A model generated the notes under the pieces. It did not search any database, was not told the origin of the DNA, and worked only from the letters and a program-made list of their open reading frames with translations. A DNA stretch of 5,095 nucleotides from a virus (lineage: Duplodnaviria > Heunggongvirae > Uroviricota > Caudoviricetes): the IMG/VR virus record IMGVR_UViG_2537562194_000019, one strand, 5' to 3'. The position numbers were made by a program, and so were the translations under genes. Positions 448 through 5,095 of this stretch are shown here, one piece after another. Numbering within the stretch: the stretch's first letter is position 1; each line of letters begins with the position of its first letter.

Positions 448-1269
448 CTATCTGGTCACCTTTTTCAGTTGTTGTTCTGCCCATGCTTCTTCAATATCAA
501 ACTGCACCACCAGCGTATCGTAAAAACGTTTAACTGTTTTTTTCCATGTATCAAGAGATATGGCATCGGTTACATTACATATGGCATTAAATGCCTCCGT
601 TGAAGGTAATCTTTCATAGCCACGCCCACCACAACGCTGACAGTTTCTGAAAACCGGCACACCCTGTTTTTCCGACTCTTCACGATGAATGGCAACACCG
701 CGCCCACGACAATCTTTACAGGCAGTGGATACCTCTCCCTTCCCTCCACACTCCGGACAGGCAACTTTTACCACCTCCCTGACTTTTTTCCATTCCTCCC
801 AGTAAGACGGATACACGCCTTTTGTGCACTTTGCCCACACTGGCGGCTTACCATCCGGATACTGGATCTTGTTTGTAAAAACCTCGCTTTCAATAAATTT
901 TTTTCCGTGACAGCAGGGGCACTGTTTTTTGCTCGCCGCGCTACGGGCATAATCTTCAAACGCATACGAAGCCATAATACGCATCACTGCCGGTTTTATT
1001 TCTGCCGGGAGTTTTCTTAACGCCGCCACGCGATCACACCGACTGAGTGCATATTCTGTCAGCAATTCTGTTGCCCGCTCTCTGTCATTCATACTAATGC
1101 CCATTTTCCCAAGGAACGCAGAAAACCCCATCTCAGCCCGATTCTGTGTCATGCCCTGCGCGGCCATCACATCAGTGATACTCAGCGCATCTTTTGACGT
1201 TGAGGCCGATGCATCGGTCAGGCCAGGGGATTTTGGGGAGTAGTATTTCGGTAAATCTTCCAGTTTCAT
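448..1269 (-). CDS. Q: Late-gene antitermination protein Q (lambda Q family) with expanded zinc-finger region
   Basis: 273-aa ORF. The N-terminus (YYSPKSP, DVMAAQGMTQNRAEMGFSAFLGK) and C-terminus (YDTLVVQ...KKVTR) match my recollection of lambda Q (FHSPKSP, DVMAAMGMAQSQAGFGMAAFCGK, YDALVVQ...NAVTR). It carries four CxxC motifs of DnaJ-like form CxxCxGxG (C117/C120, C171/C174, C184/C187, C210/C213). Its ATG overlaps the rusA stop (ATGA at 1266-1269) and pR' lies immediately downstream. Confidence 0.85.
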   Translation of the reverse strand: MKLEDLPKYYSPKSPGLTDASASTSKDALSITDVMAAQGMTQNRAEMGFSAFLGKMGISMNDRERATELLTEYALSRCDRVAALRKLPAEIKPAVMRIMASYAFEDYARSAASKKQCPCCHGKKFIESEVFTNKIQYPDGKPPVWAKCTKGVYPSYWEEWKKVREVVKVACPECGGKGEVSTACKDCRGRGVAIHREESEKQGVPVFRNCQRCGGRGYERLPSTEAFNAICNVTDAISLDTWKKTVKRFYDTLVVQFDIEEAWAEQQLKKVTR

Positions 1270-1640
1270 TTTTTAACCTGCCCTTCAAGCATTATGGGGT
1301 AAATCTTCACCCCCAGACGTCCACCAGATACTGGCTTTCCACGTACAATATTGATTTCATCAAACTGCTCATCGTCCATTAACAACCCCGCGTGCGTCAG
1401 CGCATCCAGCGGTGCTTTCAGAATATTGTCCAGGTCACGGCGGCGCTTATCCGGTGGTTCTGCAATAATTTTTATTGCCAGCCGTCCGGACAGGCTTAAT
1501 TTCAGCCGCTGCTGGCGAACAATAAGCGCCACTGCCCGGCGATAACGCTCCCCGGCTTTTGATACAAAATATGTGCTGCCACGGCGTCGCCAGTAAGTGT
1601 TCACCGTCGGCGGGTAAGGTAAAACCAAATCTATGAGCAT
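1266..1640 (-). CDS. rusA: Holliday junction resolvase RusA (crossover junction endodeoxyribonuclease)
   Basis: 124-aa ORF with RusA-like motifs: LPYPPTVNTYWRRRG, PDKRRRDLDNILKAPLDALTHAGLLMDDEQ, SGGRL. SD GAGGTGA lies 3 nt before the ATG at 1640; the stop overlaps the Q start. Confidence 0.9.
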   Translation of the reverse strand: MLIDLVLPYPPTVNTYWRRRGSTYFVSKAGERYRRAVALIVRQQRLKLSLSGRLAIKIIAEPPDKRRRDLDNILKAPLDALTHAGLLMDDEQFDEINIVRGKPVSGGRLGVKIYPIMLEGQVKK

Positions 1641-2702: not shown

Positions 2703-3054
2703 GTTACCTCCAGATGCGCTGCTGGAATGTGCGGGACGGACGCGGTGGGCATTCGGAATAAGGGAGCCTGACAGAGATTATCCAGTGACGACGATAGAAA
2801 CTGAGATCTTTCTGAAACTCGTAACCACGTCTGCGGTAGCACTGGATCAGCCATTCGGCCTGTTCTTCAGTGCATGGGTCATGCTGGAACCAGTCAGATT
2901 TGAATGCATGAGAACGCCGCCCATGCCTGCTGGCAGGGGCGGCGGAGTTATCCGAATTGTAAAATCTGGTATCGTGCGCCATCGGTTGTCTCTGCTGGCG
3001 CAGCAGGTGCCAGTTGTTCAGGCTGGCGTGCGGCAATATTGTATCTGATTTCTG

Positions 3055-3082
3055 TTGTCGTCAACAGGCAGTGTGCTATCAT
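3055..3082 (+). promoter_or_regulatory. Candidate sigma70 promoter and operator region of the parDE operon
   Basis: -35 TTGTCG (3055-3060), 16-bp spacer, extended -10 TGcTATCAT (3074-3082), about 35 nt upstream of the parD ATG. Short repeats CTATC (3076-3080 and 3094-3098) and CTAT/ATAG (3076-3089) could be an operator for the ribbon-helix-helix antitoxin. Confidence 0.4.
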
Positions 3083-3117
3083 CGAATAGTGTTCTATCCT
3101 ACTCCGGGAGGTTTACC

Positions 3118-3375
3118 ATGCGTACAACCCAACAATTCAGCATTACATTAACTAACGAGATGGCTGACATGGTGCGCGCCCGTGTGGCTTCCGGTGCCTA
3201 TGCTTCAGAAAGTGAGGTCATTCGTGAAGGGCTTCGCGCACTGAATGAGCGCGATAAAGCAATCGAAGCGTGGTTAACGCATTCAGCCGCCCCATCTCTC
3301 GATTCTATCCGCGAAAACCCAAACAACGGACGCTCCATTTCACAGGTTCGCGCCGCGATTCGAGCCGGGAAGTAA
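3118..3375 (+). CDS. parD: ParD-family antitoxin (ribbon-helix-helix, CopG/Arc-like), 85 aa
   Basis: ATG at 3118 is preceded by SD GGGAGG (3106-3111). N-terminal beta-strand FSITLTNEM followed by SGAYASESEVIREGLRALNERDKAIEAWL is typical of ParD antitoxins. The stop lies 5 nt before the toxin ATG. The upstream extension in the track (3055) begins with TTG and has no SD. Confidence 0.8.
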   Translation: MRTTQQFSITLTNEMADMVRARVASGAYASESEVIREGLRALNERDKAIEAWLTHSAAPSLDSIRENPNNGRSISQVRAAIRAGK

Positions 3376-3380
3376 TCTGC

Positions 3381-3680
3381 ATGACATATGAAGTCATCAT
3401 TACTCCTGAGGCCGAACAGCAGATAATCAACCTGCACAGATATATAACGGAGAAAGCAGGGAGCGTCATTGCTGACAATTATGCCAATGCACTTCTTGAT
3501 TATCTTGATGGGTTTTCCACATTCCCGCATCGGGGCAATAAACGCGATGATATTCGACAGGGAATGCGGGTAACTCACTTCCGCCACAGAACGATTATTG
3601 CTTTTGCCGTTGATGGCAATAAAGTCTTTATCGCAGGTATTTATCATGGCGGACAAAGTTATGAAACCGATTTCTTATAA
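3381..3680 (+). CDS. parE: ParE/RelE-superfamily toxin, 99 aa
   Basis: Starts at the internal ATG 3381 of track ORF 3270..3680 (MTYEVIITPEAEQQIINLHRYI...). Size, position directly after the RHH antitoxin, and ParE-like signature (conserved basic and His residues, C-terminal IIAFAVDGNKVFIAGIYHGGQ) support the call. Confidence 0.8.
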   Translation: MTYEVIITPEAEQQIINLHRYITEKAGSVIADNYANALLDYLDGFSTFPHRGNKRDDIRQGMRVTHFRHRTIIAFAVDGNKVFIAGIYHGGQSYETDFL

Positions 3681-3763
3681 ACTTTTCCCCACATAATTCC
3701 AGTATTAGAATAAACCGTCCGCCCCCTCTCTTACTGGCGGATTCGTAGGCTATATAAATCAAA

Positions 3764-3798
3764 GATCCCCGACTCATGTGTGTGTCGGGATCTTTTTT
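3764..3798. terminator. Bidirectional intrinsic terminator between convergent parE (+) and the DUF551 operon (-)
   Basis: Hairpin GATCCCCGAC (3764-3773) / GTCGGGATC (3784-3792), 9 bp with one bulge and a 10-nt loop, followed on the + strand by TTTTTT (3793-3798). On the minus strand it is followed by TTTGATTT. Confidence 0.65.
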
Positions 3799-3805
3799 CA
3801 GCAAA

Positions 3806-3889
3806 TTATCCCCAGCGGCAAATCGAATACACAACCAGCGCCACCGCCATTGCAATACCAACATTTGAGAAGGCTTCAGGCCAGCTCAT
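3806..3889 (-). CDS. Candidate 27-aa small hydrophobic (membrane) peptide, translationally coupled to the DUF551 gene
   Basis: Not in the supplied track (below its size cutoff). ATG 3889..3887 overlaps the DUF551 stop (ATGA) and is preceded by a consensus SD AAGGAGGTG 5 nt upstream. Translation: MSWPEAFSNVGIAMAVALVVYSICRWG, ending at TAA 3808..3806, 8 nt before the terminator. Confidence 0.4.
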   Translation of the reverse strand: MSWPEAFSNVGIAMAVALVVYSICRWG

Positions 3890-4239
3890 TGGCGCACCTC
3901 CTTCGGCGGTTCTGGTAGCGGCATCCAGTGTGTGGCTTCACACACGATGGGCGCACCGAAACACTGCGCATACTGGAAGTCACCCGTATTATCCAGGTTA
4001 AAACCTGTAAACTGTTCACCCGTGCTGGACACAAACAGTTGTACATCAACACCAACTGGCGGCATTCGCTCACTACAGCTTATCCAACCATCCGGAGTTA
4101 CCGGAGAATTGCCAGCCTTGCGCATGGCAATCTCCATGATTTCAACCATATCTCCTGGTGGAATTTTACAATGCTGACCAATATGCCTCTGCTGCCTGGC
4201 ATATTCGAGGATGTGCTCCAGCTTGATACGATTAATCAT
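3886..4239 (-). CDS. DUF551 domain phage protein
   Basis: 117-aa ORF with the characteristic C-terminal DUF551 motifs (GWISCSERMPP...THWMPLPEPP). SD GGGAGA lies 6 nt upstream; the ATG overlaps the stop of the preceding ORF (ATGA at 4236-4239). Confidence 0.75.
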   Translation of the reverse strand: MINRIKLEHILEYARQQRHIGQHCKIPPGDMVEIMEIAMRKAGNSPVTPDGWISCSERMPPVGVDVQLFVSSTGEQFTGFNLDNTGDFQYAQCFGAPIVCEATHWMPLPEPPKEVRQ

Positions 4240-4607
4240 GATTTATCTCCCTGAAGCATGGCTTCGCGGCAGTCGTTCCAGCCTTCAGCATAATCACTAT
4301 ACGCAAGAGGCCAACCGTTTCTGTATTCACGCGGCAACTTATCAGGCACTACCAGCGCTGGCGGCGCGGAGAATAGTGGTTTAGGTGATATTTCCGCACG
4401 TTTTGCGTATGCTTCAACTGTGTCAGGGTTAAACAGGATTATGTTTTCACCGCATTCCCACGCTATCGGTTCTGCTTCCAGCGATGCCAGTGCAATTTTG
4501 AATAGCTCACCCTCTACCCTGGCCATCTCTGAATTAGGGTAACAGTTCGCAACCGCTATTTTTAATTTGGCTTCCTTGATTAATTGCTCTTTGGTTAATT
4601 CAGTCAT
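4236..4607 (-). CDS. Hypothetical prophage protein (123 aa)
   Basis: Long ORF co-directional with and coupled to the DUF551 gene. Start ATG 4607 with GGTGG about 9 nt upstream. No family recognised by eye. Confidence 0.65.
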   Translation of the reverse strand: MTELTKEQLIKEAKLKIAVANCYPNSEMARVEGELFKIALASLEAEPIAWECGENIILFNPDTVEAYAKRAEISPKPLFSAPPALVVPDKLPREYRNGWPLAYSDYAEGWNDCREAMLQGDKS

Positions 4608-4711
4608 TTTTCATTACCACCCTTTCAGGCGGTCTCCTTATGTTCTGAGGGTGCAGGAATCCCTCCGGTTAAGGATTAAATTTTTAACAGTGCTGAATTT
4701 AATTATTCAGT

Positions 4712-5059
4712 TCAGGATTTTGACGCCCTGCGTATCCGCGCTTTCGCGTTACGCTCAATCTGAATTAACTTTTCTATATTTTTTCGCCTTTCCTGTTCCT
4801 CCTGGCGCAATAGCTTTACATCATCTGCCAGTCTGGTTTCTCTTTTCGCCACAGAGAGCATCCAGTCAAACGGCTCCACAACTGAACCGCAGATTTTACA
4901 GCGGACCTGACGCTCTTTTTCGTCAACCCGGACAGAGGCGTGATGGCAGTATGGTCTTTCCGATGGCTCATAAAGAAAATTAACCTGATTACGTGGGTCA
5001 TCCTCTTTTACCGGAAATAAAACAATATTACTTAACTCATCTTCTGGTTTTATTTCCAT
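4712..5059 (-). CDS. Hypothetical prophage protein (115 aa) with putative Cys/His metal-binding motif and basic coiled-coil C-terminus
   Basis: Start placed at ATG 5059..5057 (MEIKPEDE...), which has a strong SD AAGGAGAGGAG directly upstream. The track's longer version (start 5092) would begin inside the loxP-like sequence. Motif YCHH...x15...CKIC; the C-terminus LLRQEEQERRKNIEKLIQIERNAKARIRRA is charged and helical. Confidence 0.6.
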   Translation of the reverse strand: MEIKPEDELSNIVLFPVKEDDPRNQVNFLYEPSERPYCHHASVRVDEKERQVRCKICGSVVEPFDWMLSVAKRETRLADDVKLLRQEEQERRKNIEKLIQIERNAKARIRRASKS

Positions 5060-5075
5060 GCTCCTCTCCTTCGTA

Positions 5076-5095
5076 ATAACTTCGTATAGCATACA
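5076..5095. other. Partial loxP-identical recombination site, truncated by the window end
   Basis: ATAACTTCGTATA (5076-5088) plus GCATACA (5089-5095) is a 20/20 match to the left 13-bp arm and first 7 nt of the spacer of P1 loxP (ATAACTTCGTATA GCATACAT TATACGAAGTTAT). Confidence 0.7.

Follow-up and report, generated by a model that had tools for sequence, protein, structure and literature searches.

Small single-pass inner-membrane regulators of Escherichia coli and Salmonella include MgrB, AcrZ, MgtS, SgrT, PmrR, MgtR, KdpF and CydX, which act by binding a larger membrane protein. Thousands of families of small hydrophobic microproteins have been predicted in phages and prophages (e.g. PMC11188072), and the Entero67K set comprises conserved, mostly hydrophobic microproteins under purifying selection whose starts often lie a few nucleotides from the upstream stop (PMC11188072). 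Here we analyse a 5095-base stretch of tailed-phage DNA (IMG/VR record IMGVR_UViG_2537562194_000019; the whole stretch is henceforth the window), for which a preliminary description had drawn attention to a hydrophobic open reading frame (ORF) of 27 codons at 3806-3889 on the minus strand, coupled to a DUF551 gene. Comparative sequence data indicate that this small ORF genuinely encodes a protein and that purifying selection acts on that protein. With its Shine-Dalgarno (SD) sequence and an ATGA start/stop overlap, the ORF constitutes a portable module that is attached at the 3' end of quite different early or accessory phage genes.

Any one sequence may contain a short ORF by chance, and it is therefore the comparative data that decide. 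Viral contigs, and one genome for each species, were scanned with patterns and profiles, and most homologous loci were gathered with patterns demanding conserved motifs; the DNA pattern that gave a second batch left codons 7-23 unconstrained, whereas part of the peptide pattern reaches codons 19-23. The first 216 loci comprised 69 distinct DNA sequences and 40 peptide variants, and 214 were exactly 27 codons long. Site entropy at codon positions 1, 2 and 3 was 0.29, 0.24 and 0.76, respectively, the third being about three times more variable, and this third-position excess was highly significant by permutation (p<1e-5), also when codons 7-23 were taken alone. The pooled pairwise ratio of nonsynonymous to synonymous differences (pN/pS) was 0.28 in the ORF frame, compared to 1.2-2.3 in four of the five other frames. 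A sample unselected for integrity was provided by loci anchored on the neighbouring hok promoter, and not on the ORF: 56 of its 58 ORF-homologous loci were intact (54 ATG-initiated 27-codon frames, one with a GTG start and one with a W3R substitution), and two had a nonsense codon at W3. Length varied only by in-frame gain of 6-nt units encoding Ala-Met or Ala-Val in the hydrophobic core, an expansion that resembles slippage lengthening the helix; forms of 29, 31, 33 and 35 residues occur in other genomes (P0064, P0065, P0069, P0072, P0073, P0075 and P0088). Frame conservation and coding-type substitutions thus bear out the proposal of a real gene rather than a chance ORF, and in the comparison of homologous prophages that had been singled out beforehand as critical for it, frame, length, start, stop and SD were all kept across unrelated flanks.

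The tblastn search suggested in the preliminary description found homologues in 96 phage records, and also in 181 plasmids, mostly non-mobilizable and of 90-100 kb. By blastn, 1703 of 5426 complete E. coli genomes carry a homologue, at 3269 places (162 on plasmids) and at no more than seven per genome; up to seven copies in a genome are intact, those in decayed prophages included. Carriers include phages encoding Shiga toxin (Stx1 or Stx2), P1-like phage-plasmids and lytic Avunavirus phages. When 1.84 billion representative proteins were searched with a profile, 45 clusters were obtained, the named ones from Escherichia and Salmonella, to which a protein homologue search queried with a 40-aa window translation added Shigella. 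The clusters include divergent relatives of 30-52 residues from metagenomes, one of which overlaps both its neighbours by 4 nt, and in these relatives the protein pattern is kept while the DNA has drifted. No homologue was found in the K-12 prophages Qin, Rac and DLP12, the ones covered by that check (e14 and other K-12 prophages lay outside it), and tblastn with the 24-aa variant of phage SJ46 gave no match, probably owing to low-complexity masking. Among the accessory cistrons that temperate phages of E. coli carry, the small ORF ranks with the more widespread. Two side observations concern the searches themselves. The top match of the profile search, P0082 (1340 aa), is a tandem-repeat protein with 20 matching stretches (...LVLASPLVKSICRAG...), a compositional or repeat artefact and not a relative. 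Three short sequences of 1780, 431 and 369 bases (L090, L091 and L092) are ORF-bearing E. coli phage sequence in assemblies labelled as a Segatella copri metagenome-assembled genome, Xanthomonas pisi DSM 18956 and Acinetobacter idrijaensis, most likely through contamination or mis-binning.

The start codon shares bases with the upstream stop (ATGA) in 217 of 218 loci, whatever the family of the upstream gene, and an SD-like core lies 5-11 nt before the start in 45 of the 46 distinct upstream 25-mers. The product of that upstream gene varies: it may be a DUF551 protein, itself with various bodies; a 114-aa protein whose C-terminus reads ...LISVEDILR; in phage 933W, the coiled-coil protein L0139, which is Ea22-like; in the lytic Avunavirus phages Av-05 and 24-2-1, an EaA-like protein; a Rac-type protein of 167 aa; or, in the P1-like phage SJ46, a protein of 86 aa. 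In some loci no more than a 12-codon remnant of the upstream gene is left, with the small ORF still intact. Identity to the window is 73-89% in the ORF and at background level in both flanks; with unrelated upstream families and differing downstream contexts, the ORF is therefore an island of homology. Many of the unrelated upstream proteins have in common only their last ~5 codons, encoding (P)QEV[NR]Q, and the same codons spell the SD (3890-3904 in the window, with equivalents in L004, L007, L094, L217 and others). The ribosome-binding site hence travels with the small ORF, which explains why otherwise unrelated proteins end in the same tail; this tail may be part of a 16-residue segment common to variants V1 and V2 of Ea22 (PMC10834534). 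Accordingly, the ATGA coupling described for the window is present, but DUF551 is not its specific partner. Nor does the peptide belong to DUF551, since the PF04448 match ends at residue 113 of 117 and in another frame, and upstream genes other than DUF551 are common. In one metagenome assembly (L305, 3001-3432; also L306 and L307) an Ead_Ea22-like gene runs into the small ORF as ...PPLESNK-MSWPDAF...ICRWG, where the internal ATG and a GGAG persist. Its neighbours are DUF4222, DUF1233 and integrase genes, and a tail-anchored Ea22 variant could result.

Downstream contexts are equally varied, and what comes after the small ORF is usually no further cistron but a terminator or a new module. The most common neighbour is a hok/sok locus, at least 78 of the 218 loci abutting a hok promoter region. 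The convergent ParDE hairpin of the window is one of at least 12 alternatives, among them several different intrinsic terminators, genes starting 2-4 nt past the small-ORF stop and, in 17 sampled loci, a second hydrophobic ORF of 34 codons followed by hokD. The TA (toxin-antitoxin) module noted earlier does adjoin the ORF, but the association is incidental and no functional link is indicated, since ParDE is one of many interchangeable contexts. Dependence on hok/sok was likewise considered and rejected: 94 of 152 sampled hok loci lack the ORF, and hok is therefore independent of it. The arrangement also differs from that of a moron, with its own promoter and terminator: many contexts do include a terminator, but a promoter was not detected, and the start codon is coupled to the gene before it. 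In Stx phages the small ORF lies in the exo-xis region. Two loci illustrate the hok contexts. In E. coli O157:H7 EC4115 (L002, NC_011353.1) a 34-aa ORF (MSDDISLAMEGALAVIAVVGVYCLVVFLMDRLGN; 2797-2901, minus strand) with its own SD, AGGAGGG, directly follows the 27-codon homologue and precedes hokD; the NCBI annotation pipeline (PGAP) lists the former (WP_001278450.1, 34 aa) and not the latter. In phage 933W (L004) the hokW promoter, at about 2588-2640, abuts the small ORF, whose stop is at 2581: a -35-like TTTGCG lies 6 nt past that stop, TAGAAT follows 17 nt on, and then comes GGGTGCTTGAGGC, which, comparing it with R1 hok, we take to be the conserved 5' end of hok mRNA. Read-through from the early operon would enter hok in this phage.

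In the window itself, the SD AAGGAGGTG is separated by a 5-nt spacer, CGCCA, from the ATG at 3887-3889. This ATG shares its A with the end of CAA, the last sense codon of DUF551, and the DUF551 stop TGA (3886-3888) is made up of its TG and the next base, A. Among the 75 window ORFs of at least 20 aa, the small ORF has the longest anti-SD match (9 nt, perfect), and no other combines an SD match of 6 nt or more with a hydropathy of 1.9 or more over 18 residues; the consensus SD 5 nt before an ATG overlapping the DUF551 stop, as first described, is thus correct. Downstream, the hairpin folds at -16.2 kcal/mol on the minus strand (z -2.9) and at -16.4 kcal/mol on the plus strand (z -3.9). The sequence next to it reads UUUGAUUU on the minus strand and UUUUUU on the plus strand, in each case past its 3' side, so that the hairpin would act as a terminator in both directions; a bulge and a long loop explain why a simple terminator scan overlooked it. 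The gap of 8 nt originally given between the ORF stop and the terminator holds if flanking A/U pairs are counted, while the first paired base of the hairpin proper is at 10 nt. No promoter-like site was found on the small-ORF strand within 3000-5095, so that the ORF is probably expressed with the early accessory operon that precedes it; as had been stated, it is the last window cistron of that operon before the terminator.

The peptide is very likely to be the product of a real gene and to form a membrane helix. Residues 7-24 are rich in Ala, Val and Gly, with a mean Kyte-Doolittle hydropathy of 1.97, and AlphaFold2, given an alignment of 20 family members, predicted one continuous helix over residues 3-26 with a mean predicted local distance difference test score (pLDDT) of 89, in accord with the original likening of the 27-aa product and its hydrophobic core to single-pass membrane proteins. 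The summed Hessa insertion free energy (dG) is marginal for the window peptide, at ~+1.9 kcal/mol, and ranges from ~0 to +2 among variants. Least variable among 42 variants are M1, W3, P4, E/D5, A6, G11, A15, Y/F21, I23, C24, R25 and W26, and motif-unbiased searches give the same picture, with rare exceptions (MTWTEVF..., ...SIFRWG and the SJ46 form, MSWPEAFAIVGVAMAIAAIFIFWG). Conserved small residues occupy alternating positions (G11, A13, A15 and A17). The charged residues are one acidic residue near the N-terminus (E5) and one Arg near the C-terminus (R25), a distribution that by the positive-inside rule suggests an N-out/C-in orientation, which we somewhat favour over the opposite one. Features of a lipoprotein or secreted peptide were not apparent: Y-S-I-C has Ile at -1 and so is no lipobox, only three residues would come after the Cys, and there is no basic n-region.

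The explanation that best accounts for these data overall, and which we consider probable, is that of a portable SD-ATGA-27-codon gene for a microprotein that forms a membrane helix. Going by the gene layout, it would be transcribed as the last or near-last cistron of a phage early accessory operon, and ribosomes ending on the upstream gene would restart at the overlapping ATG, aided by the strong SD; the upstream gene, DUF551 in the window, would thus supply ribosomes and transcript without being a fixed partner. The product would be a single alpha-helix (residues 3-26) that inserts into the inner membrane, with its acidic N-terminus (E5) probably periplasmic and its C-terminal C-R-W-G cytoplasmic, and the interface motifs W3-P4-E/D5-A6 and C24-R25-W26, together with G11/A13/A15/A17, may mediate contact with itself or with a larger membrane protein during phage early development. 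As to the activity, we tentatively put forward, with appreciable doubt, a non-lytic membrane-embedded modulator acting via helix-helix contact, in the manner of MgrB, AcrZ, MgtS, SgrT and KdpF, because conservation is far stricter in the two membrane-interface motifs than in the core, because hydrophobicity is moderate and not extreme, and because several intact copies per genome are tolerated. It is rather doubtful that the peptide binds a specific host inner-membrane machine, such as FtsH, a sensor kinase or a permease of the phosphotransferase system (PTS) through which phage DNA enters, so as to bias the lysis-lysogeny decision, exclude superinfecting phage or cause the envelope leakage (ClyA release) that has in the past been ascribed to 'enterohemolysin-associated' phage fragments. 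Membrane targeting, superinfection exclusion and toxicity of the peptide, the roles suggested at the outset, are candidates only.

Several points weigh against this interpretation. The invariance of W3, P4, A6, C24, R25 and W26 is partly due to ascertainment, because the search patterns require those motifs, and the SJ46 variant lacks the C-R-W end. Hydrophobicity is merely moderate (Hessa sums of ~0 to +2 kcal/mol). No conserved helical face was detected (helical-moment permutation p 0.49-0.65, with a best period of ~2 residues), so that the conservation pattern lends no statistical support to the partner-binding idea. Peptide strings were absent from the supplements of the ribosome profiling (RIBOseq) study of small genes in strain Sakai (PMC5597208) and from those of the Enterobacteriaceae microproteome (PMC11188072; files possibly incomplete), and were found in no searchable full-text paper, while ribosome profiling of K-12 is silent on the gene because Qin, Rac and DLP12 have no homologue.

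We weighed these data against other explanations, of which a membrane-damaging toxin, type I-like or holin-like, is the most obvious. Such a toxin would depolarise or permeabilise the inner membrane when the early operon is on, and so contribute to host shut-off, abortive infection or envelope leakage. The peptide is indeed small, hydrophobic and predicted to be helical, its alternating small residues could allow oligomeric bundles, and the gene often abuts hok promoter regions and in O157:H7 EC4115 is followed by a second hydrophobic ORF; moreover, phage 'ehly1/ehly2' fragments, from the same Ea22-like gene neighbourhood, are said, going by the title of a 2002 paper by Oscarsson et al., to cause ClyA release from E. 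coli. However, the hallmarks of type I toxin genes were missing, with no promoter-like site on the ORF strand, no structured leader, no antisense RNA and no match in Rfam at E<=1, and translational coupling to ordinary early genes sets the ORF apart from known type I toxins. The peptide matches neither Hok/Gef nor any other Pfam family, nor any PADLOC model, and the hok loci that do without the ORF are many. Up to seven intact copies persist in a genome, even in decayed prophages, and the precise conservation of the interface motifs looks like specific recognition rather than bulk membrane disruption. A holin would be expected in a lysis cassette, with an endolysin neighbour and a late promoter, whereas the small ORF is flanked by replication or ea-type genes on one side and the DUF968-RusA-Q block on the other or, in Stx phages, occupies the exo-xis region. 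We therefore regard a toxin as unlikely. It appears less likely still that the peptide anchors the upstream product (an Ea22-like, DUF551 or other protein) in the membrane or acts as its receptor there, either as a subunit of its own or, where the frames are occasionally fused, as a C-terminal tail anchor. Tight ATGA coupling would fix the stoichiometry, and natural fusions do exist: a 143-aa Ead_Ea22-like protein ending in ...NKMSWPDAFAIAGVAMSIALIVFAICRWG, from the exo-xis/integrase region of three independent assemblies; a 206-aa relative; a 78-aa Salmonella protein, whose tail has no internal Met; and L008, in which the 114-aa-type upstream gene is fused to the small ORF. Yet fusions are rare (3 of 45 representative clusters), the small ORF is intact even where the upstream gene is cut to 12 codons, and the upstream proteins are unrelated, which makes a single specific partnership improbable. 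A programmed -1 frameshift as the general route to fusion was rejected: a slippery heptamer is lacking, and several contexts have an in-frame stop just 2-6 codons ahead of the ATG.

Two further explanations dispense with the peptide altogether. The 84 nt might be kept as a recombination boundary of mosaic phages, as an RNA element or for translation acting only in cis, for example by carrying ribosomes to the terminator and blocking Rho, as would suit a block that falls exactly at mosaic junctions and is usually the last cistron before a terminator or new module. Three-base periodicity, the low pN/pS and conservative hydrophobic replacements nevertheless point to selection on amino acids, as do length changes that are in-frame only and divergent relatives in which the protein pattern outlasts the DNA; there is no Rfam match and the regional fold is not unusual (z -0.8), so that we consider this highly improbable. 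The antisense frame on the plus strand (3780-4001 in the window, 73 aa), which shares wobble positions with the ORF, has a pN/pS of 0.345 and is open in 66 of 67 distinct sequences, but the low ratio is the shadow expected of the sense frame. Its start and stop shift with context, the first start falling in most loci at least 55-58 nt into the 81-nt block or beyond it, and in the window that start would fall inside the terminator hairpin. With no conserved start or stop, it was rejected as a true gene, and we give it next to no credence. Compared with these alternatives, a membrane-embedded modulator encoded by a portable cistron remains our preferred reading.

Despite its spread, the gene is missing from every RefSeq (PGAP) record and from almost all phage-record annotations among those inspected; a few GenBank submissions do contain the exact peptide, labelled 'hypothetical protein' or 'bacteriophage protein' (e.g. 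BAI35516.1). That annotation pipelines skip such an ORF would explain why the microprotein went unnoticed. The peptide has no Pfam family at E<=0.01, no significant match in PHROGs (best E 0.01-0.02), no PADLOC model at E<=10, and no significant match in NCBIfam or among Protein Data Bank (PDB) sequences; taken with the lack of an Rfam match, this agrees with the earlier judgement that it cannot be named from sequence. The small ORF thus represents a widespread, essentially unannotated microprotein family, of a kind that is itself well precedented. As a separate observation, the record of Stx2 converting phage II (L222, NC_004914.3) lists a 249-aa 'ORF C38' (701-1450, minus strand) antisense to an Ea22-like gene and the small ORF, and an antisense 'enterohemolysin 2-like' ORF C40, while the conserved 27-codon gene is missing there; C38 and C40 look like over-annotation.

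The features of the window are collected in the table below. Over the 611 bases compared (3690-4300) the window is 100% identical to a lambdoid prophage of E. coli E2863 (NZ_AP018802.1), and elsewhere its gene order is that of this prophage. RefSeq annotation of the E2863 prophage covers all the window genes except the 27-codon ORF, whose coordinates and unlisted status had thus been given correctly. The small hypothetical gene next to DUF968 lies between the latter and the divergent ParD promoter region, which has two promoter-like sites at 3035-3082; the RefSeq call that shares its stop is shorter (WP_001447497.1; 92 aa, 279 nt). The 10-mer ATTTACCACA occurs twice, at 1-10 and 416-425 (415 bases apart), possibly by chance; both copies lie past the end of the minus-strand Q gene, in a place where one would expect a late promoter or a qut region.

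Table. Features of the 5095-base window, in order of position.
Feature	Positions	Strand	Basis or remark
Antiterminator Q gene	448-1269	minus	
rusA	1266-1640	minus	
DUF968 gene	1653-2702	minus	
Small hypothetical gene	2704-3036	minus	Mechanical ORF of 110 aa, TTG start; without Pfam family
ParD	3118-3375	plus, convergent to small ORF	Pfam, E 1.5e-7
ParE	3381-3680	plus, convergent to small ORF	Pfam, E 5.8e-10
Bidirectional hairpin terminator	3761-3795	both	Folding energy and following sequence; common to ParDE operon and small-ORF transcript
27-codon ORF, microprotein gene MSWPEAFSNVGIAMAVALVVYSICRWG	3806-3889	minus	Stop TAA at 3806-3808; conservation and coding signal
Codons 7-24, predicted transmembrane core FSNVGIAMAVALVVYSIC	3818-3871	minus	Hydropathy, AlphaFold2
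ATGA start/stop overlap, termination-reinitiation type	3886-3889	minus	ATGA in homologous loci
DUF551 gene, 117 aa	3886-4239	minus	Pfam PF04448, E 4.8e-15; match ends at residue 113
Shine-Dalgarno sequence AAGGAGGTG	3895-3903	minus	Inside last DUF551 codons
Hypothetical gene	4236-4607	minus	
Hypothetical gene	4712-5092	minus	

The exo-xis region has been tied to the lysis-lysogeny decision and to prophage induction, hence to Shiga toxin release, and ea22 variants are under study by deletion (PMC10834534, PMC7093339). An overlooked membrane peptide could confound such studies of its upstream neighbours, since deletions of or polar insertions in ea22 variants or DUF551 genes would also remove the translational coupling and may thereby alter expression of the microprotein. 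The locus also neatly illustrates how a microprotein can have its ribosome-binding site within the final codons of whichever gene stands before it. The RefSeq annotation inspected here leaves the microprotein gene out, although nearly a third of the complete E. coli genomes carry it.

Among known systems, type I toxins (Hok/Gef, TisB, IbsC, ShoB, LdrD and DinQ) are comparable in size and in having a hydrophobic helix, and the small ORF often adjoins hok/sok. It differs from them in having no antisense RNA, promoter of its own, folded leader or Hok Pfam match, in a core rich in Ala, Val and Gly and not in Leu and Ile, and in being embedded in an operon by a 4-nt overlap. The Pf3 coat protein, which inserts in a YidC-dependent manner with an N-out/C-in orientation, is likewise a short protein in which a single helix is preceded by an acidic N-tail and ends with a basic residue on the C-terminal side, a likeness of charge distribution only. 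The K-12 DLP12 genes ylcH (33 aa, with a 4-nt overlap with ybcN) and ylcG (46 aa) are also tiny cistrons with 4-nt overlaps in a mosaic accessory region, but YlcH and YlcG are not hydrophobic, and inspection of their sequences revealed no evident similarity to the 27-mer. The Entero67K microproteins (PMC11188072) fall in the same category as the 27-mer, which was itself not found in the supplements of that study as available. With the MgrB-to-CydX group of regulators there is no sequence relationship: the KdpF model TIGR02115 scored 8.5-14.7 bits, compared to a curated cut-off of 26.85, and the 27-codon gene, unlike theirs, is phage-borne and coupled to varied upstream genes. It nonetheless resembles them in encoding fewer than 50 residues, with one hydrophobic helix (predicted here) and no cleaved signal peptide, and in having been missed by annotation.

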